NCBI GenBank assembly: GCA_964564675.1
Contig: CAZMBI010000007.1
Span: forward strand, 9,171-73,170
DNA from: an uncultured Azospirillaceae bacterium
GTDB taxonomy: Bacteria > Pseudomonadota > Alphaproteobacteria > Rickettsiales > UBA3002
DNA: 64,000 bases
Reading direction: 5' to 3'
A model generated the notes under the pieces. That model was given only the letters and a program-made list of their open reading frames with translations. It was not told where the DNA came from and made no database searches. The position numbers and the translations under genes are program-made. Positions 5,884 through 54,813 of this stretch are shown here, piece by piece (the stretch's first letter is position 1; each line of letters opens with the position of its first letter).

Positions 5884-5888
5884 AGGGA

Positions 5889-24776: not shown

Positions 24777-26672
24777 TCAGGCCAGCAATGCATTCATCCG
24801 CTGCGCAAAAGCGGCGGGGTCCGCCGGCGGTTCGCCTTCCAGCAGTTTGGCCTGATCAAGCAACAGCCAGCCCATCCGCTCAAAATCCGCGCCGTCGCTG
24901 GTTGCCTCGAGCTTTTTGATCACGGCATGTTCCGGATTGATTTCCAGAATCTTGGGCATCGCTTGCGGCAGCTGCTTGTTTTCCAGCAGGAAGCGCTCAA
25001 GACGCAATTCCATATCACCGGCGCCGATGCCAAGACACACCGGGCTTTCGGAGAGTTTATCCGTGACCCGCACTTCGCGCACAGCCTCGCCATATAGCTG
25101 CTTCAGGCGCTCAATAAGCGAAGACACGTCTGGCTTGTCGGTTGCGGTTTCAGCCGTCTCCGAGGTGTCTTGTGCCTCCTCCTCAGGCGCAAATTGCTTG
25201 AGGTCTTCTCCGGCTCGGGTCACCGATTTGAAATCCTTGCCCTGATATTTGGGGTGCACGCTGAGCCAGAAATCATCGACATGATCGGCCAGCAGCAATA
25301 CCTCCACACCGTATTTACGGAAACCCTCCAGCTGCGGGCTGCGCCGCAAAGACGCCACGTCATCGCCGGTGATCACATAAATCGCTTCCTGCCCCTCCTT
25401 CATGCGGGCGATATAGTCTTCCAGACTGACCATTTGGCTGTCGCTGTGGGTGCTCCAGAAACGGCAGGTTTCTAAAATCTTGTCTTTGGGTACATCGCTT
25501 TCGCACAGCCCTTCCTTGATGACCGGGCCGAAATTGTTCCAAAAGCCGATATAGTCGACCGGCTCCTTCTTCGCTTTTTTGATCAGCTCGTTGAGCACCT
25601 TGTTGACGATCCCGTCACGGATTTTGCGCACGACCGGATTGGCCTGCAGGGTTTCTCGGCTGATATTCAGCGGCAGGTCTTCCGAATCGATAATCCCGCG
25701 CAGAAAACGCAGATATTGCGGGATCAGTTCGATACCCTCATCGGTGATGAATACGCGTTTAACGTATAATTTCACACGCCGGCGGCGTTCGGGATGATAC
25801 AGATCAAACGGCTTCATCGACGGGATGAACAGCAGGCTGGTATATTCAATCACCCCTTCCGCCTTGTTATGTAGCGTCAGCCAGGGCTCATCAGGCATAT
25901 GGCTGACATGGTGATAAAACTCCTTATATTGCTCGGGCGTGATCTCGGATTTCGAGCGTGCCCACAGGGCCGAGCCGGTATTGACGATTTCTTCCGTGCC
26001 GTCTTCCTGTATCAGCGCGATGGGAAAGGAAATATGGTCGGAGTAGGTCTGCGCGATATGGCGCAGCTTGAAGCGGTCGAGATAGGTGGCGCGCTCGTCT
26101 TCTTTAATGTGCAAGATGATGCTGGTGCCGCGCGGGCGGTCTGCAGCCGGTTCCACCGTAAAGCTGCCGCTGCCATCTGATAGCCAGTGCCAGGCCTGCT
26201 CCTCGCCGGCTTTGCGGCTTAAGACTTCTACTTTTTCCGCCACCATAAAGCTGGAATAAAACCCGACGCCGAACTGTCCGATCAGGCTCATATCCTTCTG
26301 ATTGTCGCCGGTCATTTGCGAGACGAATTCCTGCGTGCCGGATTTGGCGATGGTACCCAAATCGGTGATGAGGTTATCGCGGTTCATGCCGATGCCGTTA
26401 TCGGTCACAGTGATGGTATTGGCCTCGCTATCGATCGACAGCGTGATTTTAAGCTCCTTATCGTCGCCGTACAGGCTGTCATCCTGCAGTGCTTCGTAAC
26501 GCAGCTTGTCGCAGGCATCGGAGGCGTTGGAGATTAATTCGCGAAGGAAAATGTCCTTATTGGTGTATAAGGAATGGATCATCAACTGCAACACTTTGGC
26601 GATTTCAGCTGAAAACTGAACGGATTCGGCGGCCGGTTGATCTTCCGGTTTGGATTTAGTCGCGGTTGCCAT
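24777..26672 (-). CDS. htpG: molecular chaperone HtpG (Hsp90)
   Basis: 631 aa with Hsp90 N-terminal signatures FLRELISNASDACDKLR and GQFGVGFYS. Confidence 0.97.
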   Translation of the reverse strand: MATATKSKPEDQPAAESVQFSAEIAKVLQLMIHSLYTNKDIFLRELISNASDACDKLRYEALQDDSLYGDDKELKITLSIDSEANTITVTDNGIGMNRDNLITDLGTIAKSGTQEFVSQMTGDNQKDMSLIGQFGVGFYSSFMVAEKVEVLSRKAGEEQAWHWLSDGSGSFTVEPAADRPRGTSIILHIKEDERATYLDRFKLRHIAQTYSDHISFPIALIQEDGTEEIVNTGSALWARSKSEITPEQYKEFYHHVSHMPDEPWLTLHNKAEGVIEYTSLLFIPSMKPFDLYHPERRRRVKLYVKRVFITDEGIELIPQYLRFLRGIIDSEDLPLNISRETLQANPVVRKIRDGIVNKVLNELIKKAKKEPVDYIGFWNNFGPVIKEGLCESDVPKDKILETCRFWSTHSDSQMVSLEDYIARMKEGQEAIYVITGDDVASLRRSPQLEGFRKYGVEVLLLADHVDDFWLSVHPKYQGKDFKSVTRAGEDLKQFAPEEEAQDTSETAETATDKPDVSSLIERLKQLYGEAVREVRVTDKLSESPVCLGIGAGDMELRLERFLLENKQLPQAMPKILEINPEHAVIKKLEATSDGADFERMGWLLLDQAKLLEGEPPADPAAFAQRMNALLA

Positions 26673-26787
26673 ACACTATGCTCCTGATTGCGGGTTGTTT
26701 TATACAACCCAGATATGGGACGGCTTAACAAAAATGCAAGTTGCTGCTACAATGGGAATTAATAAAACAGAAAGATTTCCTGTTATC

Positions 26788-27675
26788 ATGCCTTTACGCA
26801 TCTGCATGGCACTATGCGCCGCGTTGTTAATGACTATGCCAGCGCATGGCGGCCAGCCCTCCAAGCCAATGCACAAAACCCTCAAAGATGAAGTGGTCTA
26901 TCGGGTCTCGCTTGGTAAGCCTGAAGACGTCAAAATGCTGGTGGAGCGCCTGGGCAACCCCAATGCAGTGGATAATATGGGCTGGCCGTTGCTGGCGATT
27001 GCCGCCTCACGCACGGATGAAGCGGCGCTGGATGTGGTCAAAGCGCTTGTCGAGTTAGGAGCGGACGTGAATTATCACGGCGGGCGGATGAATTATCCGC
27101 TGATGTTTGCCGTGCAAAGCGGGCAACCGGAAGTTGTCAAATACCTGCTGGAACAGGGCGCCAACTACCGCGTCACCGACCCGTATGGGGTGAAAGTCGT
27201 AGATTTCGCCCGACAAAGCGGTAATGAGGAAGTCATCGACCTGATCGAAACCGCCATCAACGAAGATGTGATGAATCTGGCGCGTGTGCGTAGCCAGAAA
27301 TATTTAGACAAAATCACCCGTGAGCTCGCATTTCATGCCTGCGCCATGCAATATTACACGTATTATTATGCCTCGGAACAAGATCCCATTCCCAAGGGAG
27401 AGCAGAAAGCAACCCTAGAAAAACACAAACATAAAATAGGCCGCAGTATCGGCGATTTGACCACGCTGTTCCGGGTACCTAAACCGGAAACCGATGAGAT
27501 TTTTCATGAAGCGCGCAGCCGCATATTTAATGAGCTGGAAAACCTGATTTCCAACCGCTGGCGGCGGATTAAAGGAGTCGGCAAGCCCGGCGATATGGAA
27601 GAACGCTGCAACCGCCTGACCGAAGAATGGCACGAAGGCATCTTCGATAAGGAACAGCTGGATAAAGAGCTGTAA
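26788..27675 (+). CDS. secreted ankyrin-repeat protein
   Basis: Signal peptide MPLRICMALCAALLMTMPAHG, then ankyrin repeats (GWPLLAIAASR...VVKALVELGADVNYHGGRMNYPLMFAVQSGQPEVVKYLLEQGANYRVTDPYG). I chose the start at 26788 because the longer ORF from 26650 overlaps htpG. Confidence 0.8.
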   Translation: MPLRICMALCAALLMTMPAHGGQPSKPMHKTLKDEVVYRVSLGKPEDVKMLVERLGNPNAVDNMGWPLLAIAASRTDEAALDVVKALVELGADVNYHGGRMNYPLMFAVQSGQPEVVKYLLEQGANYRVTDPYGVKVVDFARQSGNEEVIDLIETAINEDVMNLARVRSQKYLDKITRELAFHACAMQYYTYYYASEQDPIPKGEQKATLEKHKHKIGRSIGDLTTLFRVPKPETDEIFHEARSRIFNELENLISNRWRRIKGVGKPGDMEERCNRLTEEWHEGIFDKEQLDKEL

Positions 27676-31811: not shown

Positions 31812-32255
31812 ATGGCCAAAGCTGCTGTTAAGCTGAACGATCCGTCGACTAGGAAACTCTGGCACGCCATTAACCGCATTCCTGACGAGGTGCTGGAAGC
31901 GTATTTGGCGGATAACATCATCGATGAACGGGAAATCGAGGATATTACCAATCGCCTCGCTTCCATATGCCGCGAACAGGGACTGGGTCTGGGCCACAGC
32001 GTGAAGGATCATAAGCTGATTCGCAGTCTGGTTCATCATGCGGTTCATCATATAAGGCACAACCGCAAACAGGGCCAGGTGATCGAGTCACAGCTGAACC
32101 AGGTAAGCCTGCGCGAGATTAAACAGGCGATGGGCGATCTGCTCAATAGCGGGCAGATCAAGCTGGGCACGCAGCATTTGAGCCGTGATACGCATGAGTT
32201 CGATTATGGTAATATCCCCGAACCGCCGGAAGAAGAGGAAGGTGAAAAAGAATAG
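31812..32255 (+). CDS. hypothetical protein (147 aa) with a His-rich centre and acidic tail
   Basis: ORF preceded by a GGGAG ribosome-binding site. I recognise no family. It converges on the virB9-like gene. Confidence 0.5.
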   Translation: MAKAAVKLNDPSTRKLWHAINRIPDEVLEAYLADNIIDEREIEDITNRLASICREQGLGLGHSVKDHKLIRSLVHHAVHHIRHNRKQGQVIESQLNQVSLREIKQAMGDLLNSGQIKLGTQHLSRDTHEFDYGNIPEPPEEEEGEKE

Positions 32256-32258
32256 CCG

Positions 32259-33065
32259 CTACATCCGGAACGCGTCGCCGCTGCTTACCTTATCCCAAAA
32301 GCCCGGCGCCGGCGGTAATGCTTCATGTGTCATGGCCTCATTGTAAACACACAGAATATACGCCCCGCGCCGCAGGGTGAACATTGGCGCTACCCGCTCC
32401 ACCACGATGTAGTTACCGCGCGTGCGGAAATTGACCAGCTCTTCGTTACCGGCGGCATCGACATAAAAGAAGGCCGGAATATCAGCATTTTTGTCGCGGA
32501 ATTCAAAGTAGGTAAATTCGCCGTCATCAAAGATGCGAATGGGCGCAATGGTATCCGACCCCTGAATGGAATAATTGAAATTATGTTTATCGGGGTTACT
32601 CTCAAAATCGGGAATATCGTCACCCCCACCATAATTGATGGCCGCCATATCTTCTTCAGGATAGGAAAAACGCATAACAAACAGCATATTGCCGTCGCGG
32701 ATATCCTCCGTTTCGCGAGCATGCAGCTCAAAATGGTACGTCCGCTTATCGGTAATCACCGTCATATTGGTCAGGGCGTCCTGCTCCACCGGTTTGATAA
32801 ACAACCGGTTTTGCAATGGGTTCACCAGCCAGGCGATGGAATCGCCGACGGAAACCGTCTCAATGGTTTCATCGGGATGAAACTCAATACTGGACTGATA
32901 GCCATAATGCCCGGTGAACTTAAACACTTCGTTGGAACTGTAACGCACTTTCTGCAGGCGGAAATCCGTCGGCAGCGCGCGCGGTTCCTGCAGCGCGTGT
33001 ACCTGCCCCGCCGAAAGAACGCACAGTGACAGCAGCAGACATGGTATCAGGGCGCCCCTTATCAT
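32259..33065 (-). CDS. virB9: VirB9/TrbG/CagX-family type IV secretion outer-membrane core protein homolog
   Basis: Signal peptide ending QVHA. The N-terminal domain (VFKFTGHYGYQSSIEFHPDETIETVSVGDSIAW...TNMTVITDKRTYHFEL) and the C-terminal domain (FDDGEFTYFEF...PAFFYVDAAGNEELVNFRTRGNYIVVERVAPMFTLRRG) follow the VirB9 pattern. Confidence 0.8.
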   Translation of the reverse strand: MIRGALIPCLLLSLCVLSAGQVHALQEPRALPTDFRLQKVRYSSNEVFKFTGHYGYQSSIEFHPDETIETVSVGDSIAWLVNPLQNRLFIKPVEQDALTNMTVITDKRTYHFELHARETEDIRDGNMLFVMRFSYPEEDMAAINYGGGDDIPDFESNPDKHNFNYSIQGSDTIAPIRIFDDGEFTYFEFRDKNADIPAFFYVDAAGNEELVNFRTRGNYIVVERVAPMFTLRRGAYILCVYNEAMTHEALPPAPGFWDKVSSGDAFRM

Positions 33066-33069
33066 TCAC

Positions 33070-33831
33070 CTACTCCCTTTCAAACACCAGGCGTTCACGA
33101 ACGTCATAGGATACGACGCGGAAAGTGGGCTCTTCATATTCCAGCACGTAGTCCCCGTATTTTTCACTGTAGTAAGACGTTTCCTTCAAATCTGTATACT
33201 CAAAGCTGATCGTTGCCGTCCAGTTTGTTTTGTTTTTTTGGTTGTTTCCGATCACTTCTGTGGAAAAGTTGACCGTTCCGCGATAGGGCGTGACGCTTTT
33301 GTCATAGGTCACAGACTGAATCGCCACCTCGACATCGGCATATTTGCCATACTGACGGATGGGGCTGCGCGGATTGTTAGGGTTGGTCAGGCGATCATAT
33401 TCCTGAAAGGTTTTGGCATCGTTATAATGCTGCATAAACGCCCATTGCATAAGAAAACGGTCTTCATTGTAGGACTCGCGCATCCGGACATAGGTTTTGA
33501 GATAATATTTGATTAATGCCGGATTGGACTCTTCATTGGCGGCCTTCAAACGAATCATATGCGGGATTTCTCCGATAAAATCCTTCGCCCGGTAGACAAA
33601 CGGAATACGTGGCTTGATCGGCAGCAGGTTGATTACCGACATGGTAGCGAAAATCGTAATCAACACCGCAATAAAGGTAATGATAATAAAGAAAATCCGC
33701 TCCGAAATGGGGCCGATATACAATATGTCATACCATTTACGGGCTTCATCAAAATAGGAGCCGTCAGCAATTTTCGCAGCCACTTCATCTTGTTCTTCGG
33801 TCGGATCAGCCTGGTGCGATTTAGCATTCAT
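33070..33831 (-). CDS. virB8: VirB8-family type IV secretion protein homolog
   Basis: Bitopic topology with a cytoplasmic N-terminus (YFDEARKWYD), one TM helix (IFFIIITFIAVLITIFATMSVI), and a periplasmic domain of about 170 aa containing YVRMRESYN and NPNNPRSPIRQYG, resembling the VirB8 NTF2-like domain. It lies 4 nt upstream of virB9. Confidence 0.65.
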   Translation of the reverse strand: MNAKSHQADPTEEQDEVAAKIADGSYFDEARKWYDILYIGPISERIFFIIITFIAVLITIFATMSVINLLPIKPRIPFVYRAKDFIGEIPHMIRLKAANEESNPALIKYYLKTYVRMRESYNEDRFLMQWAFMQHYNDAKTFQEYDRLTNPNNPRSPIRQYGKYADVEVAIQSVTYDKSVTPYRGTVNFSTEVIGNNQKNKTNWTATISFEYTDLKETSYYSEKYGDYVLEYEEPTFRVVSYDVRERLVFERE

Positions 33832-33979
33832 AGCGCGCGTTACTTTTAATTTTTAAAAAATTTCCACAACTGTCATCAAATTGAAACAAAAATATGCTAA
33901 ACTGGTTGTTCAGTTAAAATTCGGCTTTATGCTGATGCGAATATAAAACATATCATTGTGATTTAGGGGTCTTAAGGCT

Positions 33980-36900
33980 ATGCGTGCTTTCTTGCCGGCT
34001 TTATCTTTGTTGGCCATATCCGCTTGTTTTTCGCTTTTTTTTATTGCTCCCGCTCAGGCGCAAAACCCAAGCCAGGTCTATATTGAAACTGAACAGAGCG
34101 GCTCGGATTCGAATTGTACCTATATTGACTCAAAAGGTCAGAAGCAGCAAGCGGATCCTGCCGTTTGCAAAATGATTTATGGCTGTAATATCGAAGGCAA
34201 AATGCTGCCTTATGGCACCAAATGCAAAAGCGTGATCGACGGGCAAACCTATGACGCCGATACCGTCTGGGCGCCGGTCCCGCATCCAAAGAATAAAAAA
34301 GTCCCGGTAGAATGCCTGCGCGGTGACGAGCCGATCACCGCCGGCATTAACAAGGCGGTGCTCGATGAAACCGATTCGGCGGCCTATTGCCGGCAGATCA
34401 TGGTGTCTGACCTGGAAAATTCCGCCGGTTGCCAGCCCTCGCAAAGCGGCGACCCCTGGCGCTGCCGCGGGTTTGAAAAGGTTTTGGAAAAGAAAAAGGA
34501 CCCCCAGAAATACTGGGTGGAAGCACGCGAAGGCGCAGCGCTGGATGTGGCTTCCGCCGCACCGATGGCGGGGCAAACAACTGGGTATACCTGCAAAACC
34601 TTCGCCAGTGAAGATAAAATCTGCGTCCAGCAGACCCAGCTCAAACCGACGCCGAGCCCTAAGGGTAGCTATCATGAAGACCCCACCTCGCCCGCCAATT
34701 ATCCCATGGCAGAACATCATGAGAGTGAAGGGCAGCGCATGGCAAAAGTCATCAAAAATCGCCAAGCGGGGATGCCAAAGTATACCGGAGGAACCACAGG
34801 CGCAGCCGGGGAAAAGCCCGATACGCCCTATCCGGAAAACGACAATGCCCGCCCCAGTGGCCAGCGCACGCTTGCCACGTTTAAAAGCGGGCGTGATTGT
34901 CAGCGGCCCGGCCAGAAATGCGATGAATTTGATGCCATCCGGCCCATTCAGTTCGATGCCGCTTATTTAAACACGCCTGCTTACGCCACCTATGACCCAA
35001 ATGCCTACCCGCCCGGCTATGAAATGAAACTGGCCGACCAACTGCGCGGTAAAACGGTCGATGAAGTGGCGGCGGAAAAGGCCTTCGGTAACCGCCTGAT
35101 CAGTGAAAGTGTGGCCGCCGCCATCCCCGGCGGCAGCCAGATGCAGGGCATTTTCAAGCGACTGAATGCCATGTCGAAATATTACAGCAATACTGACAAA
35201 ACCCTGAGCCGTACCGCCGGTGAAGTGCTGAAAAGCGAAGACGGACTGGACTACCTGACCGCCTACGGTCCCGGCGCTAACGGACTGACCAGTTTTCTAA
35301 ACGGCGGCGGTGGTACCGGCAAGGCAAATTTTAACAGCGTCATCCAGGGCATATTCCAGCAGTTCGGCGGTGGTGGTGGTGGTGCCGGTGGTGGTGGTGG
35401 TGGCGGTGGCGGTAACAACTGCACCCCCGGTATGTTCGGAAATTTCGACCAGTGCCTGAATAACCTTATGTTGCCGCCGCAAGGCGGCGTCGCCGCCAGC
35501 ACGGCCGGCTGCCCGCCACAGGTGCTCACGTGCGCCTCACAGGCTAGCGGTGGAGTCACCCCGAGCGTATTGCAGCAGTGCTTTAACCAGCTCATTAATC
35601 AGAACTGCAGCAGTAGCGGCGGCGGCGGCGGCGGCAATAATCAACTGCTTAACGCTCTGCAGGGTCTGTTGCAAAATATCGGCAGCTTTGGCTCCATGCA
35701 GCAGATGAAAAGCGCCCTGGCCGAACCGGTCAAGATGGACAAGCTGCACAGCCCTTCCAGTAACAGCACCCAGATGTTCAGCGGTAATGGGTTTTTTGCC
35801 AATTTTCATGAGCAGGATATTTATCCCATACGTCCCGAATATTCTGAATGCGCCAACTATAACCGCAGCAAGTGCACAATCTCTCGAATGAATGCTTCAT
35901 ATAACAGGAATCACAGCACGTGGGGCCCGACCTCGCCGCCGCTGAGCGCCGTGCGCCTTGCCGGCCAGCTAGATAAGAATATCCGCGTGCGTCTCAAACA
36001 GTCGCGCTATGACTTTGTTAACACGCAACTGGCCATGCGCATCGCCTATTGCCGCTGGTGCGACCATGACCGCGATGAAGGCAAGCAACGCTGTACGCCG
36101 GGACATGAATGCGCCAATAAAGACTGCCCGTGTCCAGTCAATTGCTGGAGCTCCAAATGCTGGGGCGTCGCTATCGACGATAACTCGAATTACCCGTCCG
36201 CATTAGTCTGGAACGCCAGCAACAATGATCCGGCGCGCCGCCCGAATATCGGATGCCCCGGCTCCAACAAACCGATGGGCCCGGATGGCGGCAGATATTT
36301 TAACAGTGGCAAAGTGACTGGCATGTTGTTAGATGAAGGCGTGCAGGCGGTCTTTACCGCTTATAACATGCAGCCGTTCCACATCCATACCGTGGCTCAG
36401 CATGCGGCCAAGCCGATGCGCTCGACCAATAAAACCTGCCTGGCGGATGCGCGGCATTTAGACCAAAAAAAACAGCCGATGGGGGAAGGCTATGCGTTCT
36501 GGAATTATCACGGGCCGGACTTCCCGCATCCCGAACTATCGACGACTGCGGATGAACTAGGCGGCCAGGGAAACGGCCGGGTCAACCTCGATTCGTATGA
36601 AGGCGCGCTGGCCGTGGTTGATACCAGCTGTTTAAACTCGTATGGCAATAAGCATGACTGGGGATATGGCGTACAGGCGATGCATCAGCCCAACCCGATT
36701 ATGGACCGCATGATCGATTTCGGCTTCAATGACCGTGAGCTTGGGTTTGTCAAAGACGTGCTGGCAGGTGTGGCTGGCGCTGGCGGCGGCGGCCAGCACA
36801 GTGACAGCCAGATGTGCTGCCTGGGCGGGCCCGGCGAGGCCACCGGCGGCTCGCTCGGCGAAGGCAACAACGCCATAAACGTGATGACCGAAGTCAATCT

Positions 36901-37624
36901 GGCGCAAAGCAATACCAAGCGCCATGATTGTCATGCCTGCCTGCCGAATTTTTATCGCACGGCCAGTGCACGCGGGCCCATGTCGTTTGCAGCCAATGCG
37001 GGCGGCGGTGTGGTTAATGTGTTGCTGGAGGATACCGAATTTTCCAGCGGCGCGGCTGATTCCGGCGGCGGCGGCAGCGGCGAGCAGGCGATGTTACGCT
37101 CAGCCGTCTGGCCGCTGGCCTGTGCCGGCTGGCCCAACGACCCGAAATCGGCCAATCAATTCGGGTTTGACTATCCGATGGAAAGCGGCCTGGAAAAGGT
37201 TGCGGATATGCGGCGCAATGCCGCCGGGTGCTTCATCTATATGGAAGAAGGCAAATCTGCGCTCAAGCAGCCAGGCGGATTCGGTAACGTGGCGGTCGTG
37301 CGTAATGCCGGGGAAGATGATCACGGTCCCTATCTTGATGTGGATGTGACCAACTATGGCCGTAATGCGGATATGTGCGGCACAACCGATAAAAACGGTA
37401 TGGTGAGCAAGCTGACCTTCCGGCTGAAGGAAATTCCTCCAGACGAGAAACAGGCCATGGAAAAAGCGGGCGTTAAGCGGTTTGATTTTGTGAACGGTAA
37501 TCCGGCGGGAACCATCAAGGTTCCCAAGCAACTCTCGTTTTTCTGTCCGCATAAAGATGAGGATCTGGGCATTCAGGCTTCGGCTGAACCAAACGACAAC
37601 ACGGAGGTGGCGCGAAACGAATGA
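33980..37624 (+). CDS. large secreted Cys-rich, poly-Gly-containing protein (1214 aa), unknown family
   Basis: Uninterrupted 3.6-kb ORF with signal peptide MRAFLPALSLLAISACFSLFFIAPAQA. It has many Cys residues (CRWC, CHAC, CPCPVNC) and glycine runs (G6AG8, G6, G4). I recognise no catalytic motif. Confidence 0.8.
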   Translation: MRAFLPALSLLAISACFSLFFIAPAQAQNPSQVYIETEQSGSDSNCTYIDSKGQKQQADPAVCKMIYGCNIEGKMLPYGTKCKSVIDGQTYDADTVWAPVPHPKNKKVPVECLRGDEPITAGINKAVLDETDSAAYCRQIMVSDLENSAGCQPSQSGDPWRCRGFEKVLEKKKDPQKYWVEAREGAALDVASAAPMAGQTTGYTCKTFASEDKICVQQTQLKPTPSPKGSYHEDPTSPANYPMAEHHESEGQRMAKVIKNRQAGMPKYTGGTTGAAGEKPDTPYPENDNARPSGQRTLATFKSGRDCQRPGQKCDEFDAIRPIQFDAAYLNTPAYATYDPNAYPPGYEMKLADQLRGKTVDEVAAEKAFGNRLISESVAAAIPGGSQMQGIFKRLNAMSKYYSNTDKTLSRTAGEVLKSEDGLDYLTAYGPGANGLTSFLNGGGGTGKANFNSVIQGIFQQFGGGGGGAGGGGGGGGGNNCTPGMFGNFDQCLNNLMLPPQGGVAASTAGCPPQVLTCASQASGGVTPSVLQQCFNQLINQNCSSSGGGGGGNNQLLNALQGLLQNIGSFGSMQQMKSALAEPVKMDKLHSPSSNSTQMFSGNGFFANFHEQDIYPIRPEYSECANYNRSKCTISRMNASYNRNHSTWGPTSPPLSAVRLAGQLDKNIRVRLKQSRYDFVNTQLAMRIAYCRWCDHDRDEGKQRCTPGHECANKDCPCPVNCWSSKCWGVAIDDNSNYPSALVWNASNNDPARRPNIGCPGSNKPMGPDGGRYFNSGKVTGMLLDEGVQAVFTAYNMQPFHIHTVAQHAAKPMRSTNKTCLADARHLDQKKQPMGEGYAFWNYHGPDFPHPELSTTADELGGQGNGRVNLDSYEGALAVVDTSCLNSYGNKHDWGYGVQAMHQPNPIMDRMIDFGFNDRELGFVKDVLAGVAGAGGGGQHSDSQMCCLGGPGEATGGSLGEGNNAINVMTEVNLAQSNTKRHDCHACLPNFYRTASARGPMSFAANAGGGVVNVLLEDTEFSSGAADSGGGGSGEQAMLRSAVWPLACAGWPNDPKSANQFGFDYPMESGLEKVADMRRNAAGCFIYMEEGKSALKQPGGFGNVAVVRNAGEDDHGPYLDVDVTNYGRNADMCGTTDKNGMVSKLTFRLKEIPPDEKQAMEKAGVKRFDFVNGNPAGTIKVPKQLSFFCPHKDEDLGIQASAEPNDNTEVARNE
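35366..35413 (+). repeat. GGN trinucleotide tract encoding G6-A-G8
   Basis: Read directly: ggc(ggt)5 gcc (ggt)5 ggc ggt ggc ggt. A second, perfect (GGC)6 tract lies at 35618-35635. Confidence 0.95.
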
Positions 37625-38337
37625 AACAGCGGGGCTTCATAGCATTATTGGCAGCAGCCGGCCTGTTATGGTCGACCGATCAGGCTATGGCCGCCCAGTG
37701 TCCGCAGAATCCTAGTTACAGCGACCTGAAAAACTGTAAATTTGCCCCGATTGACTTTGCAAAATTCAAACAATGGACGCGCGAGGGCAAACAACCGCCG
37801 CGCGCTTTGACCATTTGCGGCATTAACGGCGAAGACGAAGCCAAGGGCTGTTATAACAGCGGCGGTATGGGCAGTATCGTCAAAGGCGGTATCCGCCAAC
37901 CCGGCACCGTCCCTGCGCAAAGCCCGCCTGGCAGCGGCGGCGGCGGAGGAGGAGGGGGGTTTCCCGGCGGACTGCCCGGCCTCCCCGGCGGCGGGGGTGG
38001 TGGCGGCGGCGGTGGTGGCGGCGGCGGCTCAGCACCCAGCCCTGCCTGCGTTGCCGCACAGTCGAGTGCGCTGGCCCCTTGCTCCAATTCCCTTAATGCC
38101 GCTGCCGGCTCGATCGTACCGCTGAATCCGACCTATTTTCCCAGTTGTTCCGGTGCGATGCTCGGCTGCATGTCCGCCTCAACGGGCGGTACCGCCATTA
38201 CTTCCACGCTGGTGAATAATTGCGTGACGCAAGTGGCAACGGGTGCTTGCAGTTCGGGCGCCGCCGGCGCCGGCGGCGTTGTTTTACCAGGCGCCCCGGG
38301 AGGGGCCGGTTCCGGTGGTGGTGGCGCTGTGCCATAA
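37621..38337 (+). CDS. secreted Gly-rich, Cys-containing protein (238 aa), unknown family
   Basis: ATGA overlap with the 1214-aa ORF. Signal peptide MKQRGFIALLAAAGLLWSTDQAMA. It has G8 and G14 runs and a six-Cys module shared with the 1214-aa protein. Confidence 0.7.
   Translation: MKQRGFIALLAAAGLLWSTDQAMAAQCPQNPSYSDLKNCKFAPIDFAKFKQWTREGKQPPRALTICGINGEDEAKGCYNSGGMGSIVKGGIRQPGTVPAQSPPGSGGGGGGGGFPGGLPGLPGGGGGGGGGGGGGGSAPSPACVAAQSSALAPCSNSLNAAAGSIVPLNPTYFPSCSGAMLGCMSASTGGTAITSTLVNNCVTQVATGACSSGAAGAGGVVLPGAPGGAGSGGGGAVP
37987..38028 (+). repeat. GGN trinucleotide tract encoding 14 consecutive glycines
   Basis: Read directly: ggc ggc ggg ggt ggt ggc ggc ggc ggt ggt ggc ggc ggc ggc. A shorter GGN tract lies at 37931-37957. 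Confidence 0.95.
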
Positions 38338-38415
38338 ACAACAAATATTTTTAAAATTTAATCAGTTAACGCCAGAAATTTATGATATAATAATGTGTGT
38401 TAGGGGGTTGGTATC

Positions 38416-39876
38416 ATGACTGTACCGGTATTCGCGTGGGCTGTGCTTTTTAGTTTATCGCTGGCCATTGCATCATCTCATGCGCAAAATGTGAATTGCC
38501 CGACACCGCATATCACCGACGATGGCTGTATAATGAAGGGCCAGCGCGATGCTATTACGCCGGGCAGTTACAGCGATCAGTGCGGCGTATCGGTAGAAGT
38601 GGCGGGAAACTGGGTGACACTGACCGAAGGCGCCAATGTCGGCCTGGTGGTGAATGAAGACGACAGCACATTATACGCCTATCAGATCGTCGGCGATAAT
38701 ATGCAATTCCGCAAGGCGAATCCGTTCCCCGAGTTTTATTGTGAAGTGCAGGGGAATAACCTCGCCATGATTCCGGTGCCGCCGGTGCATGAGTTCATCG
38801 CGGCCTCAAACGGTAATAGCAAGGCCGCCGTTGGTGTTGATATCCCGATGGCGCAAGGGGAGTTTATCGTCTTGGAGCGGGCCAGCCCGCCGCTTCCCAA
38901 TCAAAAAACCTTAACCATCGATAACTTCATTTATGAAGCGCCGGAGCCAAACCCGGGCGCGTTTCCCTGCCAAAACACCCCGCCGGAATGTATTACCAAA
39001 GACAAGCTGTTATCTTCTTTGCCGGTGGATTTCGGCGATATGCGTTTTCGTAATGACTCCGCACCCGCCTGTATGATTTTTTCGATCGCTCCTGGCACCC
39101 AGGATGTGGAAAACTGCCAGCGTCGGCAGCATTATTATAACCTGCAACATACCAACGTATATGCCGGCGTCGGCGAGTCGTTTTCGGTGGGCCGGGTCAG
39201 TGGCGGCGGCAGCCAGGTGACGCATACCGTGCGCCCCAATGGCGGCTCATTCACCGCCGGGCCGACCGGACTGGAGTTTAGCGGGGCGAAAGCGTTGATC
39301 GGCGGCGGCAATCGCATTTATTTAAGCACCGCAGCCGGTACGCGCAGCCATAGTTTTTTAAACGGCGCGCGTTTTGAAATTAACGACAATTACAGCCTGC
39401 ATCTGAATCCGCCGGGACGTATCCGCCTGAACCGTAGCGGTGATATGCAATTGCTGGATGGCGGCACAGTGCAGGACAGCCGGGGGCGAACTATGCGCGT
39501 GATTTCGCCGATGGCCTATGTGCGCTTTGGCTCCAACCGGATTATTGAAGGCACCACATTCGGTGATCTGGCGCTCTCGGACGGCATATTATTACCCGCC
39601 TTAGCGGACGGCGCCATTCAATACGCCGCGTACACGGATTATGATATGTATTGCCCAACACCCGAGCCGCCGGAAGAGGAAATACTCAATGATCAGTTTG
39701 ACCCAAGACCGCAGAATTTTCCATGGATCAAGTCCGGCGGTACGGGCGTCCCCACCCGCTACATGAAAGCCAGCCAGGCACCCAAGGTCATGCCCTGTAT
39801 CCGCAAAAAATCTGCTGGCGGAAGCGGAAGTTCAGGCGGCAGCGGCAGGTCAGGCGGCAGCGGCGGTGGGCCTTAA
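38416..39876 (+). CDS. secreted protein (486 aa) with a Gly/Ser-rich C-terminal tail, unknown family
   Basis: Preceded by a GGGGG ribosome-binding site. Signal peptide MTVPVFAWAVLFSLSLAIASSHA, tail SAGGSGSSGGSGRSGGSGGGP. I recognise no family. Confidence 0.75.
   Translation: MTVPVFAWAVLFSLSLAIASSHAQNVNCPTPHITDDGCIMKGQRDAITPGSYSDQCGVSVEVAGNWVTLTEGANVGLVVNEDDSTLYAYQIVGDNMQFRKANPFPEFYCEVQGNNLAMIPVPPVHEFIAASNGNSKAAVGVDIPMAQGEFIVLERASPPLPNQKTLTIDNFIYEAPEPNPGAFPCQNTPPECITKDKLLSSLPVDFGDMRFRNDSAPACMIFSIAPGTQDVENCQRRQHYYNLQHTNVYAGVGESFSVGRVSGGGSQVTHTVRPNGGSFTAGPTGLEFSGAKALIGGGNRIYLSTAAGTRSHSFLNGARFEINDNYSLHLNPPGRIRLNRSGDMQLLDGGTVQDSRGRTMRVISPMAYVRFGSNRIIEGTTFGDLALSDGILLPALADGAIQYAAYTDYDMYCPTPEPPEEEILNDQFDPRPQNFPWIKSGGTGVPTRYMKASQAPKVMPCIRKKSAGGSGSSGGSGRSGGSGGGP
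39832..39864 (+). repeat. 18-bp tandem duplication (TCAGGCGGCAGCGGC core) in the Gly/Ser tail
   Basis: The core TCAGGCGGCAGCGGC occurs at 39832-39846 and again at 39850-39864, a period of 18 bp (6 codons). Confidence 0.9.
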
Positions 39877-42133: not shown

Positions 42134-42384
42134 CGAGCAAACCGCTCCGTAAAATCAGGCAGGTGCACGAGATGCGCCCGGTTTATCAACATCCAGAAGG
42201 TTTATTGCGTGCCAATATACAATATCTTGTATAGGCCGGCCATTCATTGTAGGATCGCACCTGATGCGTCGCCACAAGATTAGCCGTAATTTTTAACCAT
42301 GTATTAAAGCATTTATCGTACTTTAGTGACATTGCGCTGAAAAACAAGATATAAGGAACACGTAACACAGGGAATGAGGTTCGT

Positions 42385-43566: not shown

Positions 43567-45312
43567 ATGAACGCACCCAACAACAGCGCCGGCAGCGGCG
43601 GCATCGATACCGACAGCGTTACCAAGGAACTGGCGCTTATCTGGGCCGGGCATCAGGCCGTCGGCCTTAAGGGTAAAATGGCGCTTTATACCTTAAAAGG
43701 TCAGGACCCCTGGCGAACGCAACACGAGAATGTCTGCTTCTGGTTTGGCCCGGATGAAACCGATAAAGCCATCATCAAACTCAAAGAATATTATAATGAC
43801 GGCGAATTGCCGAATACTCCCTTACTGCTTAATCCCATTGTGCATGAGGTCAGTGAGGACGGTAAGGAGGCCACCCCGCTGGGTACGGGCATTATGTGGA
43901 GCACGACTTTTGCGCTTGGTATTTATCGCCTGGATGATGAGGCAATTGACCGTATCGATGAGCTCGGCGTGTACTATTCCCCCTTCCAGCGCGTTGATAA
44001 CCAGCGCGCCGGCTTAAAAATCCTGGCTTTCTCGAAGAAAAAAATAGAGCCGCTGGAAGATGGCCGCTCGCTGGAAACCAACAAGGCCTTTTACGATCTG
44101 GTCGGCATGGATGCCCCGCTTTATTACCCGTATTACCTGCTTTCCGGAGTCAAATACCTATCCCTACACGGCCTGTTTAATCACTCACATGTGGATTTGC
44201 TGGTTCCACCCGAAGACCAGCAGGATCTGACAAAACTGGTCAAGCAAAAGTGGATGGACCCGCAACTGATTCTCGACGCCCGCTATTGCTGGGATTCTTA
44301 TGACCGGATTCATTCGCTGTACAAGAAATGGGGGCGCGATCCGAATGATGTCAAACACAACAACCGTTTTTTCAATCTGTGCGCCCGTGATGTCATGCTG
44401 TTTGACGCCACCGGACCCATGCGCCAAGGCTCGGATGAAAGCTTTGAATTCCTGGTGCCGGGGCTGATTCCACGCGGGGCGATTACCGTAATCGCCGCCT
44501 CCGGAGGGTGCGGGAAAAGCTCGGTGGCCCACGAGCTGTGCGTGGACTGTGCGATAGATTACACGCCTGAGGATACCAAACCCTTTTGGCTGGGCCAGCC
44601 GGTGAATGTGAACGTTGCCAAAGGGATTTGCGTATATTTCTCCGGGGAAGACGGGCCGGCCATTATTAACGCACGGGGTGAATTGTTCGACCCAGAACGC
44701 CGGGCGCTGCGCCTGCAGTTCCACCGCGCCGAGTTCGGCAGCGACGATACCACCTTCGCCGAATTCGTTACCTCCCGCCTGCGCAAGATGCCCGATATTC
44801 CGGTGATGGTGGTTGACCCGGCGCGGAAATATCTCTCCGGAGACGAAGAAGACTCACAGGTCGTCAGTGAATTTTTCTTTGCGCTGGAAGAGCTTGCCAT
44901 GACGAAAAACTGCGCGGTCATCGTCGTGCACCACCTGAAAAAAGGAGCCAAGCCGCAATCGATCCCGGAAGTGCTGGATGAATTGCGCGGCAGCCAGGTC
45001 TTTATTGACCGCGCGCGGGTGGTGCTGGGCATGTTCCGCAACGGCATTCACACCCATGTCGGGCTGGCGAAAAATAATATCCCACCCTCGCTGGGCATGG
45101 TCACCGAAGAACGGGTGTTCGTGCGTAACCCGAAAACGCTACGTCTGATGTGGCTGCCGGGTGAAGACGGTGTGCGCCGCGATACGATGTCGCAGGAAGA
45201 GCTCGACCGTATTGAGTATGAATCCTTTATGCAGCAGGTGGAGCGGGCCAAAAGCGGTGGCGCAATCGCCGCCGACGAGGTGGATGATTATATCCCGCCG
45301 AGCCAGCGGTGA
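43567..45312 (+). CDS. RecA-fold ATPase of the AAA_25/RepA-like type with an uncharacterised N-terminal domain of about 280 aa
   Basis: Walker A (AASGGCGKSS), Walker B (PVMVVDPARKY) and AVIVVHHLKKG resemble plasmid/phage RepA-like (AAA_25) helicase-loader proteins. I do not recognise the N-terminal half. Confidence 0.7.
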   Translation: MNAPNNSAGSGGIDTDSVTKELALIWAGHQAVGLKGKMALYTLKGQDPWRTQHENVCFWFGPDETDKAIIKLKEYYNDGELPNTPLLLNPIVHEVSEDGKEATPLGTGIMWSTTFALGIYRLDDEAIDRIDELGVYYSPFQRVDNQRAGLKILAFSKKKIEPLEDGRSLETNKAFYDLVGMDAPLYYPYYLLSGVKYLSLHGLFNHSHVDLLVPPEDQQDLTKLVKQKWMDPQLILDARYCWDSYDRIHSLYKKWGRDPNDVKHNNRFFNLCARDVMLFDATGPMRQGSDESFEFLVPGLIPRGAITVIAASGGCGKSSVAHELCVDCAIDYTPEDTKPFWLGQPVNVNVAKGICVYFSGEDGPAIINARGELFDPERRALRLQFHRAEFGSDDTTFAEFVTSRLRKMPDIPVMVVDPARKYLSGDEEDSQVVSEFFFALEELAMTKNCAVIVVHHLKKGAKPQSIPEVLDELRGSQVFIDRARVVLGMFRNGIHTHVGLAKNNIPPSLGMVTEERVFVRNPKTLRLMWLPGEDGVRRDTMSQEELDRIEYESFMQQVERAKSGGAIAADEVDDYIPPSQR

Positions 45313-45315
45313 TTA

Positions 45316-45873
45316 TTATTTCGCAGGGCTTTTTTCTACCTGCCTTCCATCGCTTGCAGTACCAGGCGTTAGCTCGCACAATTCCTCGATCGGCCTGCCA
45401 TCAACTTTGAATTTCCCTTGCGTATCAATTCTTGAATATAAGGGGGCAGTAGGATCAGTCGTTGCCCTTTCCCCTGCTTCTAGTAAAGCCTTTATTGTCT
45501 GGTTTTCTTCGGGATTAAAAATAGCAGTTTTCCCATCCGGCGTTTTCATTATATCTCTATCAATGTTTTTCTCTTCCTTTAATTCTTGCATCGAATATTC
45601 AGGAATCGATTCTTCAGTGTTGCCTTTAGTACAATCTGCCACGGCATAACCCAATTTACTTACCGGGTATCTAAGATTATCGTCCAACCACTTTAAACCG
45701 GTTTTAACCGATGGTTCAGCCCACTCGGTTTCATTATATATCTCTAACATATTACCAGCGTCATCTGTAAAAGAGTGTCGCGCAACACCACCCAATTTGC
45801 CTGCAATTTCACTTTCATAATCTATAGTCGATTGCCCTTGCTCTGATTGCCCATCAGTCATGGCGTCCTCCAT
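45316..45873 (-). CDS. hypothetical protein (185 aa), acidic, AT-rich gene
   Basis: ORF with an ATG start. It looks clearly AT-richer than the surrounding sequence. I recognise no family. Confidence 0.55.
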   Translation of the reverse strand: MEDAMTDGQSEQGQSTIDYESEIAGKLGGVARHSFTDDAGNMLEIYNETEWAEPSVKTGLKWLDDNLRYPVSKLGYAVADCTKGNTEESIPEYSMQELKEEKNIDRDIMKTPDGKTAIFNPEENQTIKALLEAGERATTDPTAPLYSRIDTQGKFKVDGRPIEELCELTPGTASDGRQVEKSPAK

Positions 45874-45990
45874 TAATTAAGATTGTTTAATTAAGGATTA
45901 TTTTATTGTGTGATGATGTCAGTTTGATGACCGCAGCATGACATTTTGATGACGTTACCGGCAAATCCATTGCTCATGGGCGCTTATTGC

Positions 45991-48006
45991 CTAGTGAATC
46001 GACGCGCCAGGGGGGACTTCGAGGTTTTTAGAGAACTCCTCACGCAACGAGCGATCTTGCCAGTTAATCGGTGTCTGGGAATATTCAATGGGTGGATAGT
46101 GGCGGGTTTCCGTGTCTTTGTCGGCCTGTTTGCCATCCTGCAGTTGCACATCCGCCACCTTCGGCCGCGGCGTCTGGGGCAATTGCCGGGCAGACTCACG
46201 GATTTCTTCCTTTTGCGCTTTCAGTGCTTTGGCTTCCGCTCTTTCCTGTTCGCGTTCTTGCTGCTCTTCTCTTACCACGCTTGCCACCTTGCGGGGACTG
46301 GCAGGCTCCAGAACCTGTTCCCGGATATCGCTCAGCGCACCCTTAACCTCACCGGCCTTCAAAGCGGCGGCGCCGTCAATCAGGCGATAGATCGCCTTAT
46401 CCATGGTCGGTTTATCCCAGCGCAGCGCCGTTTCGGCTTTGGCGATCATATACGGGGTATAGCTGATCGATGCATTGACCCAGTCATGAACATATTCCTG
46501 TTGCGCTTTCGAAGTGGCCAGTCCCAGCCGTTGCAAGTTCTTAATTGTGCGGCGGCCGGCCTCATAACATTGCTTACCGTTCCAGTCGAGCATCTTATCC
46601 AGCACGCCGGCGCTAGCCTTGGGGCCATGCGGATAGAAATCTTTATTGAAGCTGGTGTTAGGCAGTACACGTCCGTTTAACGTAACCTGGCCGCCTTTAC
46701 GCACCTGCTCATGGTGATCGAAATAATTATAATGAACACCGTCCGGCCCCATCACCAGGCCGCTGTTACGACGCTGCGCGAGATCGGAATAATCAGGCGC
46801 CAAGTGATATCCTACCCCTTTATATTTCGCCTGAGGCACCCGGAACATCCAGAAAAACGGGACGGCCGGCGTCATATAGATAGTTGCTTTGATAGCGCTT
46901 TTGGTAATGTAGCGGAAACTGTAAGCGGCGGCATCGAGAACGGCATGGAACGGATCGCCCGGAATATGTGGAGACGGTAACGCTCCTTCTTTGCGGAAAT
47001 CGTCAATAGTATCCGCCACCTCTTCATACATATCACGATACATTAGTGTATACCAGTTATAGCCCGTAAAGCGCAGCTGAAAGTCAAGCGCCAGGGACGG
47101 AGTGAAGCTACCGATGATCTGCCCTTCTTTATTGACCTGCCAGCCGGCGCGCACCCGGTCGGATAAAAATTTAAAGCCCGGCGTAAAACGGTTGATCGCC
47201 TGACGTTGCCAGCGCATCTGATATACATAAGGTAATGCGGCGGCCCAGTCCTCACCCTGGTTTTTGGTCAGAATTTTCCAGGCCTGTTTGCCTACCGCCT
47301 TAGCGAATTGCCGGGTGTCGAAATAACCGTCTTTATACCAGCTGTTGGTGATATTGGGATCGAGGCTGTTCGCAATCTGACGACCCCAGGCATCCCCCGT
47401 GCTGCCCATGGCGAAATCAAATGTTATGGCAACGATTTCATGGCCCAGACTCCGACCCGAACCTGACGGATTGGTCAATGTTTTCTGATAGCCTTCGTAA
47501 AAACTTTTTGGCCGAAAGCGCACTACATCGTTGGCCAGCAGGTTTTTATTGATATGCGGGTTAGCGATCGGCATCGCGCGCACAAAGCTTTTTATCGGCG
47601 GAGCGGCTATCCGATCAAACGCACGCGCGACATAGCGCAGCGGATAATGGGTGAGGTCTTTCGTGGTCAGCGCCAGCTCTGGATGATAACCCGGTAACTG
47701 CTTACGGATCGCCGCCTGCCCCATCGCATAAAATGTGGCCCCCATGATACCGCGCGAGAACAGGCGAACCAGAATCCGGTTAGCAGTGTAACTGGTCCAG
47801 TTCGGCTTTTTGACGATATCGTCGCTAATATCCTCATAGCCTGAGCCGAAGAGAAATTCACCGTAGGATTCCCGGTTCTCGCGTTCAGCCTCCGGACTGC
47901 GCGAACCCTTCTCATATCGTAAAAACGCCGAAAACGGATTCCGGTCTTCTTCACGTGTTATGTCGTCATCATCTGCCATGTCATATAGCTCGGTTGGCAG
48001 GCGCAC
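45991..48006 (-). CDS. hypothetical large protein (671 aa)
   Basis: Uninterrupted 2-kb ORF with an acidic N-terminus (MADDDDITREEDRN), a few hydrophobic segments, and a charged Glu/Lys/Gln C-terminal region (EEQQEREQERAEAKALKAQKEEIRE). The start could be GTG at 48006 or ATG at 47979. Confidence 0.7.
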   Translation of the reverse strand: MRLPTELYDMADDDDITREEDRNPFSAFLRYEKGSRSPEAERENRESYGEFLFGSGYEDISDDIVKKPNWTSYTANRILVRLFSRGIMGATFYAMGQAAIRKQLPGYHPELALTTKDLTHYPLRYVARAFDRIAAPPIKSFVRAMPIANPHINKNLLANDVVRFRPKSFYEGYQKTLTNPSGSGRSLGHEIVAITFDFAMGSTGDAWGRQIANSLDPNITNSWYKDGYFDTRQFAKAVGKQAWKILTKNQGEDWAAALPYVYQMRWQRQAINRFTPGFKFLSDRVRAGWQVNKEGQIIGSFTPSLALDFQLRFTGYNWYTLMYRDMYEEVADTIDDFRKEGALPSPHIPGDPFHAVLDAAAYSFRYITKSAIKATIYMTPAVPFFWMFRVPQAKYKGVGYHLAPDYSDLAQRRNSGLVMGPDGVHYNYFDHHEQVRKGGQVTLNGRVLPNTSFNKDFYPHGPKASAGVLDKMLDWNGKQCYEAGRRTIKNLQRLGLATSKAQQEYVHDWVNASISYTPYMIAKAETALRWDKPTMDKAIYRLIDGAAALKAGEVKGALSDIREQVLEPASPRKVASVVREEQQEREQERAEAKALKAQKEEIRESARQLPQTPRPKVADVQLQDGKQADKDTETRHYPPIEYSQTPINWQDRSLREEFSKNLEVPPGASIH

Positions 48007-48108: not shown

Positions 48109-48768
48109 TTAGAAGGGAATACGGATAAAGGCTTCCAGATTATGGCCGTCATAGCTGTACTCCATCGACTGGCCGGCGGTGGTGGAAAAATTAGGATCAG
48201 CGGTGCCAAAATAACGGTAACCCACACCAATCAATGCGTTTTTTAGGCGCTCAGACGACAGTTTATAAGCCACGCCAGCCATGCCCTGATAGGCCAGCGC
48301 AGTATCCTCATCGGCGACATTAATGGTGAGGCTGTCAAATTTGTGTTGTGCAACACCCAACCCTGCGCCCAGATACGGCAGCCACTCGGAACCCGTATCA
48401 AAGTCATAATAGCCGTTGACCATGCCAACATATGATTCAATGCTGCCGCCGACGCCCTCAGGAGCGATTGTACCGCCATCGAGCTCATCGAAATCGCTTT
48501 CACGGTACATTATTTCCAGCTCCAGGCGCGTCTGACTGAGCCGACCTTCCATCTGCGGCGAATAACCCACAGATAACCCGACGGCGTATTCCAGATCATG
48601 CTCCAGATCGCCAACATCGGTGCCGCCGATGTCAAGCTGCGTATCCTGCATAAAACTGAGTTCGCCATGTGCCCCGATATAAAACGGTGACTGAGTGTTT
48701 GCCGAAGCACTCGCTGCGTGAGCCATATATACTAAAACGGCCGTTATGACCAACACTGATTGATACAC
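48109..48768 (-). CDS. outer-membrane beta-barrel protein (Omp25/OMP_b-brl-like)
   Basis: Has alternating beta-strand pattern, aromatic girdle residues, and the terminal signature FIRIPF. A GTG start at 48768 gives the signal peptide (M)YQSVLVITAVLVYMAHAASASA and avoids overlap with the upstream paralog. The maximal ORF extends to 48855. Confidence 0.75.
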   Translation of the reverse strand: MYQSVLVITAVLVYMAHAASASANTQSPFYIGAHGELSFMQDTQLDIGGTDVGDLEHDLEYAVGLSVGYSPQMEGRLSQTRLELEIMYRESDFDELDGGTIAPEGVGGSIESYVGMVNGYYDFDTGSEWLPYLGAGLGVAQHKFDSLTINVADEDTALAYQGMAGVAYKLSSERLKNALIGVGYRYFGTADPNFSTTAGQSMEYSYDGHNLEAFIRIPF

Positions 48769-48805
48769 GAATATACCCTGATGCCGTAGTGTGAAGCGTA
48801 TGTGA

Positions 48806-49480: not shown

Positions 49481-49622
49481 CGGATCGCTCCTTATTTTTT
49501 GTGCTTTTCTCATTTATGCGGATTCGGGCCGGCTTTTGCAATTGCTATTGGTGCCGGCTATCGCTTATAACCCTTTTTATCCCCAACTGTGGGATTTTGA
49601 CCATGGAAATATCAGGATATGA

Positions 49623-54697: not shown

Positions 54698-54813
54698 AAT
54701 GCATGCTCTTTCCAATTTTTCGCCAGCATTAACCCAGCTGCGGACGAAACGCCACCATTAAATATGGTGCGCCGTACTTGAACTTATAGGCGGTGGCGGT
54801 TACATAAGAAGCC

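Follow-up and report, generated by a model that had tools for sequence, protein, structure and literature searches.

A VirB8/VirB9 gene pair facing an operon for a rare giant secreted protein in a probable relative of the Mitibacteraceae, a basal family of the Rickettsiales

What is the role of genes for VirB8 and VirB9, two components of type IV secretion systems (T4SS), when they stand as an isolated pair among housekeeping genes, and is the pair connected with the operon of predicted secreted proteins that faces it? The question was raised by contig CAZMBI010000007.1, of which a stretch of 64,000 nt (the window) was screened over its full length for T4SS genes, open reading frames (ORFs) and flanking genes. 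Six ORFs verified there form a block that is bordered by aroC-hisI and, at its opposite end, by murU-amgK-tsaE. On the minus strand virB8 (33070-33831) is followed after 4 nt by virB9 (32259-33065), while on the plus strand, beyond a divergent AT-rich spacer of 148 bp (33832-33979, 32% GC), lie the gene for a protein of 1214 amino acids, here called the giant (33980-37624), p238 (37621-38337), which overlaps the giant gene by ATGA, and p486 (38416-39876); the sixth ORF, p147 (31812-32255, plus strand), adjoins virB9. Coordinates, gap, overlap, spacer and core-gene flanks were all as described in the first-pass annotation, which had been made from the letters alone. The analysis below suggests that the pair is probably one islet of a scattered T4SS of the rvh (Rickettsiales vir homologue) type, and that the giant represents a rare protein family of this clade for which a link to the secretion system is plausible.

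The resemblance of the two minus-strand products to VirB8 and VirB9 was borne out by profile searches. VirB8 (253 amino acids) matches PF04335 with 85.5 bits against a curated cutoff of 23.2 (E=6e-24, model positions 2-186 of 213) and VirB8 chains in the PDB at E=2.7e-7 to 3.8e-5, and it reaches 45.9 bits with the NCBIfam VirB8 equivalog, below the cutoff of 188. By inspection the protein is bitopic, with one hydrophobic stretch, ERIFFIIITFIAVLITIFATMSVINLL, at about residues 44-69, followed by a domain that aligns to periplasmic VirB8 structures. VirB9 (268 amino acids) matches PF03524 (215.8 bits, E=6.6e-64) and also TIGR02781 above its cutoff (242.5 against 217.7 bits, model positions 3-247 of 248); it starts with a signal peptide, MIRGALIPCLLLSLCVLSAGQVHA, that is judged by inspection to be cleaved before LQ, and carries complete N- and C-terminal domains, aligning to TrwF 7o3j over residues 10-250 of 266 and, through the C-terminal domain, to TraO, CagX and VirB9 C-terminal-domain structures. 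Its closest matches among annotated records are plasmid VirB9 proteins (45-48% identical). On the evidence of these matches both proteins are genuine members of their families. The absence of further T4SS genes nearby was also confirmed: tblastn of the 64-kb window with a Xanthomonas plasmid set of VirB2-B11, VirD4 and MobF detected only VirB9 and, weakly, VirB8, and no further T4SS gene was found in the flanks, of up to 10 kb, of nine related loci.

The nearest VirB8 outside the clade, P0042, is 26% identical and lies at L015 3906-16243. The island there has the complete VirB1-B11/VirD4 set together with an integrase and adjoins rplU-rpmA-obg; the contig, of 1.48 Mb, comes from an organism that is not related. 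P0042 was considered as an outlying relative of the window VirB8 and rejected, since it belongs to a complete VirB/D4 island of the ordinary kind.

Relatives of the locus were found through the giant, for which HMMER, run exhaustively on 1.84 billion representative proteins, yielded 11 relatives of 412-1964 amino acids, making a family of 12 members with that of the window, and the genomic contexts of these relatives were recovered (loci are labelled L0xx and giants P00xx). The full arrangement, hisI-(p147)-virB9-virB8 diverging from giant-partner-murU, where the partner gene corresponds to p238 and p486 as described below, is present in L003 (P0010), L004 (P0008), L007/L011 (P0012), L010/L012 (P0015), L013 (P0016), L017 (P0013) and L018 (P0014), the downstream part being cut by contig ends in L003 and L004. 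L006 (P0011) shows the same core on a contig that stops inside the gene after virB8, L014 (P0017) is a partial version on a contig starting within the spacer, and L020 (P0009) is a fragment ending before the gene start. L007/L011 belongs to the metagenome-assembled genome (MAG) "Alphaproteobacteria bacterium UBA6178" and L010/L012 to the MAG "Rickettsiales bacterium CC_bin32".

The arrangement is thus syntenic in at least nine other lineages whose housekeeping proteins are just 50-80% identical. Identity to the window is graded along the locus, from about 80% for hisI, through 70-73% for VirB9 (71-73% for UBA6178 and CC_bin32), 52-58% for murU, 36-63% for VirB8 (52-58% for the same two MAGs) and about 50% for p147, to 24-28% for the giant (about 30% across relatives in the HMMER scan) and 23-30% for the partner; the last two evolve 2-3 times faster than the neighbouring genes. 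Because the position between hisI and murU is conserved across relatives of such graded identity, the block is, as judged from its synteny, ancestral to the clade and not an insertion. The impression recorded in the first-pass annotation that the block looks inserted does not therefore hold, and no tRNA, integrase, relaxase or flanking repeats were found in it.

The MAG UBA6178 belongs to the Mitibacteraceae, a basal, flagellated and free-living family of the Rickettsiales, for which a GC content of 52-58% has been published; the GC content of the window, about 54%, falls within this range and is consistent with such a lineage. The window is likely, then, to come from a member or a close relative of this family. 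An rvh T4SS with duplicated components has been reported in the Mitibacteraceae, and duplicated VirB4, VirB8 and VirB9, several copies of VirB6 and the lack of VirB5 characterise such systems. In the table of Schön et al. two virB8 genes are entered for UBA6178, the first under the canonical family 01XPY and the second under the divergent family 0256E, which is common to the Rickettsiaceae, Midichloriaceae, Athabascaceae and UBA6178; two copies of virB9, eight of virB6, single copies of virB10, virB11 and virD4 and none of virB5 are listed as well. RvhB4-I and RvhB4-II of the same MAG were placed on contigs 11560 and 203329 by Lehman et al., and its VirB8/VirB9 locus is on contig 36259, apart from both. 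UBA6178 thus carries a locus of the window type and has the rest of the machine, including a second VirB8 and VirB9, encoded elsewhere. The pair can be regarded as one islet of a scattered Rickettsiales rvh T4SS, an arrangement seen in the relatives and, by extension, probable for the genome from which the window derives. This part of the first hypothesis put forward in the first-pass annotation, a scattered T4SS of Rickettsiales style, is well supported by UBA6178, CC_bin32 and the published tables. In such a system VirB9 would form part of the outer-membrane core and VirB8 would sit at the inner membrane, and both would join VirB3, B4, B6, B10, B11 and D4 encoded elsewhere.

Which of the duplicated paralogues the pair represents can be approached through a comparison with Rickettsia, where, as in Neorickettsia, rvhB9-I and rvhB8-II form "one distinct operon", RvhB9-II has lost or degraded its C-terminal domain, and RvhB8-II is fast evolving, with an NPXG dimerisation motif from which Asn and Gly have disappeared (Gillespie et al.). 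This motif, which canonical VirB8 and RvhB8-I carry between helix α5 and strand β4, is likewise missing from the window VirB8, where the corresponding stretch reads EEPTFRVVSY; the VirB8 proteins of the clade carry E/Q-P-T/S-F ahead of the conserved β4 Tyr (EAAF in L018), and the HMMER alignments to solved VirB8 structures end short of the NPXG region. Across relatives VirB8 is also more divergent than VirB9 (36-63% against about 72% identity). Because VirB9 is complete, VirB8 shows EEPTF in place of NPXG and VirB8 diverges faster, the pair is most likely the Mitibacteraceae counterpart of the rvhB8-II/rvhB9-I islet. It shares with the Rickettsia operon the composition of a two-gene VirB8 and VirB9 unit lying apart from the rest of a scattered system, a full-length VirB9, a fast-evolving VirB8 devoid of the NPXG Asn and Gly, and the Rickettsiales lineage.

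Several points weigh against this assignment. The paralogue types, and hence the orthology, were assigned from motif and domain criteria and not by phylogeny; the gene order is VirB8 then VirB9 here, the reverse of B9-I then B8-II in R. typhi; and among PDB structures the window VirB8 scores 26.8 bits with R. typhi RvhB8-II (4o3v) and 33.9 bits with Bartonella VirB8. Family 0256E is missing in two of the five Mitibacteraceae in the table of Schön et al., and the existence of T4SS genes elsewhere in the window's own genome is deduced from relatives. There are, moreover, differences from the better known members of the order. Unlike in Rickettsia, both VirB9 copies of the Mitibacteraceae still fall in one gene family (Schön et al. 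table) and, unlike in classical Rickettsiales, the window pair faces a conserved operon of giant and partner that is unreported there.

A protein of 341 amino acids encoded at 26650-27675 (plus strand) carries ankyrin repeats (Ank_2, 2.4e-19) and is thus of the eukaryote-like repeat type from which candidate T4SS effectors have been discussed in the Rickettsiales.

The giant is rich in cysteine, as the first-pass annotation had pointed out, with 40 Cys residues that include the motifs CRWC, CHAC and CPCPVNC. Members of its family extend from 962 to 1964 amino acids, the length being set by a variable central region that is poly-Gly in the window giant, whereas in P0011 and P0013 it resembles a coiled coil and gives weak matches to Laminin_II, DUF1664 and Tropomyosin. 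The conserved parts are an N-terminal motif, TPAYAxYDPxxYxPGQE, a Cys-rich core, RYDxFN..RITYNRWC..(CCIxCxCPPKPC)..PCWSxKCW, and a C-terminal block. The strictly conserved positions are nearly all Gly, Cys, Pro or Trp and there is no invariant His, a pattern that suggests a structural role, with disulfides for stability, rather than catalysis. Type-I signal peptides are recognised by inspection in the giant, p238, p486 and their homologues; a lipoprotein reading, prompted by ISAC at residue 16 of the giant, was rejected since the homologues lack the lipobox. No beta-barrel, lipobox or other clear outer-membrane export signal is apparent in giant or partner by inspection. Sec export, disulfides, flexible Gly linkers and fast divergence together constitute a signature of exposed envelope or surface proteins, as giant and partner would then be.

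Searches for similarity outside this family with the giant were negative in Pfam, NCBIfam, the PDB (by sequence or profile) and plasmids. PDB searches with the giant and p486 produced Gly-linker noise alone, word-indexed searches with the giant, as a single sequence or as a 12-sequence profile, returned only the query, and a scan of GTDB genomes with the alignment of the giant core gave no match, so that the source genome is not among the species representatives. A collection of 15 billion proteins contains the giant, p486 and VirB8 as singletons; two members each were counted for the two remaining exact matches. Structure prediction was of little help: AlphaFold2 (AF2) applied to the C-terminal 634 residues of the giant, with eight sequences, reached a predicted local distance difference test score (pLDDT) of 41, and a single-sequence AF2 model of p486, at pLDDT 33, was unusable. 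Foldseek comparison of the giant model (pLDDT 41) with the PDB returned nothing at E<=1e-3, and scattered matches to a papain-like fold at E~0.3-1 were not considered meaningful, the family having no invariant His. On these search results the giant is the founding member of a rare, clade-restricted and fast-evolving family. No description of the giant and partner module was found in the literature, whereas the islet itself is of an already known type.

Two candidate identities among T4SS components were examined and discarded. The first-pass annotation had likened the giant functionally to TraN, the outer-membrane protein that stabilises mating pairs in F-type T4SS, and this part of its hypothesis was not sustained: none of the 12 members matches Pfam TraN (PF06986) at E<=1, and hhalign against F TraN gives a probability of 0.2%. 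The two proteins have in common that they are large, Sec-exported and Cys-rich and encoded among T4SS genes, so that an analogy in surface contact is plausible; on the other hand, no sequence relationship was found, the giant is 1.6-3 times longer and contains spacers of poly-Gly or coiled-coil type, and the system next to which it is encoded is P-type, not F-type. Similarity to VirB10/TrbI (PF03743) was indicated by a weak tblastn match (E=0.002, residues 62-160) that was not reproduced in other family members; hhalign against VirB10 gave a probability of 2.4%, in a different region, and there is no Pfam TrbI match.

Downstream of the giant the first-pass annotation counted two more separate proteins, and here its view has to be revised, for the operon represents two families and not three. 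In most relatives p238 and p486 are replaced by one partner gene of 530-582 codons. Residues 25-100 of p238 match the N-terminal 100 residues or so of these partners, of the 251-residue L018 partner and of the truncated L004 and L020 genes, while residues 36-413 of p486 match partner residues ~135-545 (23-30% identity, E down to 7e-44). Judging by these alignments, the partner gene has undergone fission in the window. Its N-terminal half, p238, consists of a signal peptide, a Cys-containing N-domain (residues ~25-100), a poly-Gly linker and a Cys-containing tail unique to the window; the C-terminal half, p486, has acquired a signal peptide of its own and an extra Gly/Ser-rich C-terminal tail, and the 78-nt gap upstream of it holds promoter-like sites. 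In L018 the partner, of 251 amino acids, has just the p238-type N-domain, and this domain is therefore the constant part of the partner. No Pfam, NCBIfam or PDB similarity was found for the partner, and a module common to the p238 tail and the centre of the giant, which was considered, proved not significant.

Glycine runs of up to 14 residues had been attributed to all three secreted proteins. This holds for p238 (14), but the longest run in the giant is 9 and p486 has none of four or more, its Gly/Ser-rich tail being the only comparable feature. The tracts are encoded by imperfect in-frame arrays of GGY/GGC triplets and are therefore expected to change in length and not in frame, as length-variable linkers, and for this reason phase variation at the tracts was rejected.

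One line of evidence on whether the giant operon and the VirB pair belong together functionally is the divergent region between them. The spacer contains a conserved core, CCACAACTGTCATCAAATTGAAACA, at 33864-33888, an extended -10-like element, TGCTAAACT, at 33895-33903 directed towards the giant, and a -35-like ATGACA on the minus strand (33876-33871) directed towards virB8. Over about 45 nt the core reads TTTCCACAATTGTCAyAAAAyTGAAACA...TGnTAnnnT (pattern TTTCCACAATTGTCAYAAAAYTGAAACA); it is unique in the window and in nine lineages it occurs once per locus, always in the spacer and in a fixed orientation, with the divergent start sites of the two units 94-158 bp apart across relatives. An Rfam scan of the spacer revealed no riboswitch or small RNA match.

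Giant and partner could then be expressed together with the islet through this shared conserved control region and could act at the cell surface or in the periplasm as a lineage-specific T4SS accessory, for example in target contact or adhesion on behalf of a contact-dependent machine. Such an accessory would be the most economical mechanism. A functional link of this kind is a serious possibility, though one we would rate at somewhat below even; it is made plausible by the shared conserved control region and is unproven because the whole neighbourhood is syntenic. A precedent of a sort is provided by Cag3, CagM, CagT and CagY around CagX of Helicobacter, which are also clade-restricted orphan proteins encoded beside a VirB9 homologue; however, the Cag components lie inside one contiguous island, and contact between giant or partner and VirB9 is without sequence or structural support.

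An alternative which must be taken seriously is that the pair is an rvh islet and that giant and partner are unrelated, fast-evolving secreted proteins of the cell surface or the extracellular space, such as an adhesin, a toxin or a component of matrix or biofilm, co-inherited with it since the family ancestor. The points that weigh against a functional link are also those that favour this alternative. The block is flanked by hisI and murU in every relative, so that the adjacency of the giant may be inherited synteny, as expected by descent; the spacer upstream of cheY, examined as a control, is about as conserved as the shared one (0.83 against 0.87 mean identity in the best 25-nt window), which weakens spacer conservation as proof of coupling; and neither giant nor partner has sequence or structural similarity to any T4SS component. 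Their Sec signal peptides imply, furthermore, that no T4SS is needed for exit from the cytoplasm, and the Mitibacteraceae have been predicted in published work to form biofilms. Against it stands the constancy of the association: ten members of the giant family adjoin virB8/virB9, among them every one whose contig reaches upstream of the gene; for the other two of the 12 the contig stops at the gene start or short of it, and none was seen elsewhere. The first-pass annotation had proposed to look for such co-occurrence, and the pair and the giant operon are indeed adjacent in the relatives; it had also held that a separate VirB8/VirB9 elsewhere, together with giant homologues apart from vir genes, would refute its reading, and of these a second pair is encoded elsewhere in UBA6178, while giant homologues away from the pair were not found.

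The four-gene core has, in addition, survived changes in its flanks. Gene p147 is variable; in L018, the most divergent lineage, a gene for a 504-residue SASA and HemolysinCabind (RTX) protein (1865-3379) is inserted between hisI and virB9; and in both L017 and L018 a TPR gene takes the place of amgK-tsaE. Start sites only 94-158 bp apart, with one conserved core and promoter elements in both directions, are likewise less easily accommodated by independent co-inheritance. All in all, we consider an unrelated giant to be a real prospect that nevertheless stops short of being probable. Were it correct, the locus would amount to an ordinary rvh islet beside surface proteins of a new orphan family, in a lineage that has received little study.

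The cheY-upstream spacer that served as control (42134-42384) contains a block, TTAACCnTGnGTTAAA, that is conserved in L007, L010 and L013 and fits the CtrA-box TTAA-N7-TTAA, which suggests CtrA control of the cheY-cheZ unit in this family.

Returning to the reading in which giant and partner serve the T4SS, a bolder version can be formulated. The second VirB8/VirB9 pair would not be a redundant spare but half of a distinct module with giant and partner. This module would be an apparatus of the surface or outer membrane that makes contact with targets or exports the giant itself in two steps; the free-living Mitibacteraceae would still have it, and the host-restricted Rickettsiales would have lost it. 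Taken as a whole this proposal is unlikely, yet it would, if true, offer the first functional clue to the rvh duplication and to the role of the T4SS in non-parasitic Rickettsiales. Why rvh systems keep duplicates of VirB8, VirB9 and VirB4, and what a T4SS does in free-living basal families, for which killing of competitors has been proposed, are open questions, and a secreted pair that is clade-wide, strictly adjacent and probably co-regulated is a testable candidate for both.

Bordetella exports pertussis toxin by means of the Ptl T4SS, and the ptx genes for the substrate adjoin the T4SS genes. By analogy, giant and partner could be exported in two steps, first by Sec into the periplasm, where they would fold with disulfides, and then across the outer membrane through the rvh T4SS. 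Signal-peptide, disulfide proteins are encoded beside T4SS genes in both cases, the many Cys residues and the lack of any other obvious outer-membrane export signal would suit such a route, and the genes abut those of VirB8 and of VirB9, an outer-membrane core component. On the other hand, there is no similarity to pertussis toxin subunits or to known T4SS substrates, a multi-disulfide protein of 1000-1960 residues would be a very large cargo, and here just VirB8 and VirB9 are adjacent with the rest elsewhere, so that exit of the giant via a T4SS is argued by analogy. This route is less likely than a contact or adhesion accessory, and we regard it as improbable.

The second hypothesis of the first-pass annotation, that VirB8 and VirB9 form a reduced stand-alone scaffold which exports or displays giant and partner, has in its favour that the pair is isolated in 64 kb, that the giant operon accompanies it in every case, and that the purpose of the duplicated rvh paralogues is an admitted gap in the literature (Gillespie et al.). 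It is disfavoured because relatives with the same locus carry the complete machine, with a full rvh set including ATPase, coupling protein and VirB10. VirB9 is, besides, as conserved as housekeeping genes and canonical in both domains, as expected if it docks VirB10 and VirB7. No system is known to work on VirB8 and VirB9 alone, and we hold a scaffold of this kind to be very doubtful.

That a conjugative or mobile element was inserted here recently and left the block as its remnant, as might be supposed from the lower GC of virB8 and the spacer (0.45 in the 33-34 kb segment) and from plasmid proteins being closest to VirB9, is exceedingly improbable and effectively refuted by the same hisI-murU position in at least nine other lineages, by the lack of the mobile-element signs listed above and of any plasmid match for the giant, and by a GC content that is ordinary outside virB8 and the spacer and, in the giant operon, equal to that of the flanks.

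Among the neighbours of the islet, p147 encodes a small acidic protein of 147 amino acids that lacks a signal peptide and is predicted to be cytoplasmic, with no Pfam or NCBIfam match. In each of L004, L010 and L013 a homologue with 49-51% identity is encoded at this position and on the corresponding strand; the gene is absent from L003 and L007/UBA6178 and reduced to a 56-residue remnant in L018 (1605-1775), so that it appears as a facultative neighbour. A 20-nt stretch encoding PEPPEEE in its tail (32217-32236) is 90% identical to one in p486 (39661-39680), possibly by chance.

Farther along the window synteny with the relatives breaks after cheZ, where a 581-residue AAA_25 protein is encoded at 43567-45312 (plus strand), while the relatives have an orphan of 1109-1254 amino acids followed by fliP/fliO (L007 18484-21813, L010 19978-23742, L013 20099-23752). 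Seven sizeable ORFs of 185-671 codons lack a Pfam match (in 1853-3435, 4702-7124, 45316-48006 and 53807-54715), and two of them, similar in size, are direct neighbours (4702-5883 and 5889-7124). Two tandem genes at 48109-49513 (minus strand) encode outer-membrane beta-barrel proteins with weak Surface_Ag_2 and Opacity similarity, and a gene for tRNA-Leu(taa) lies just downstream of them at 49623-49710.

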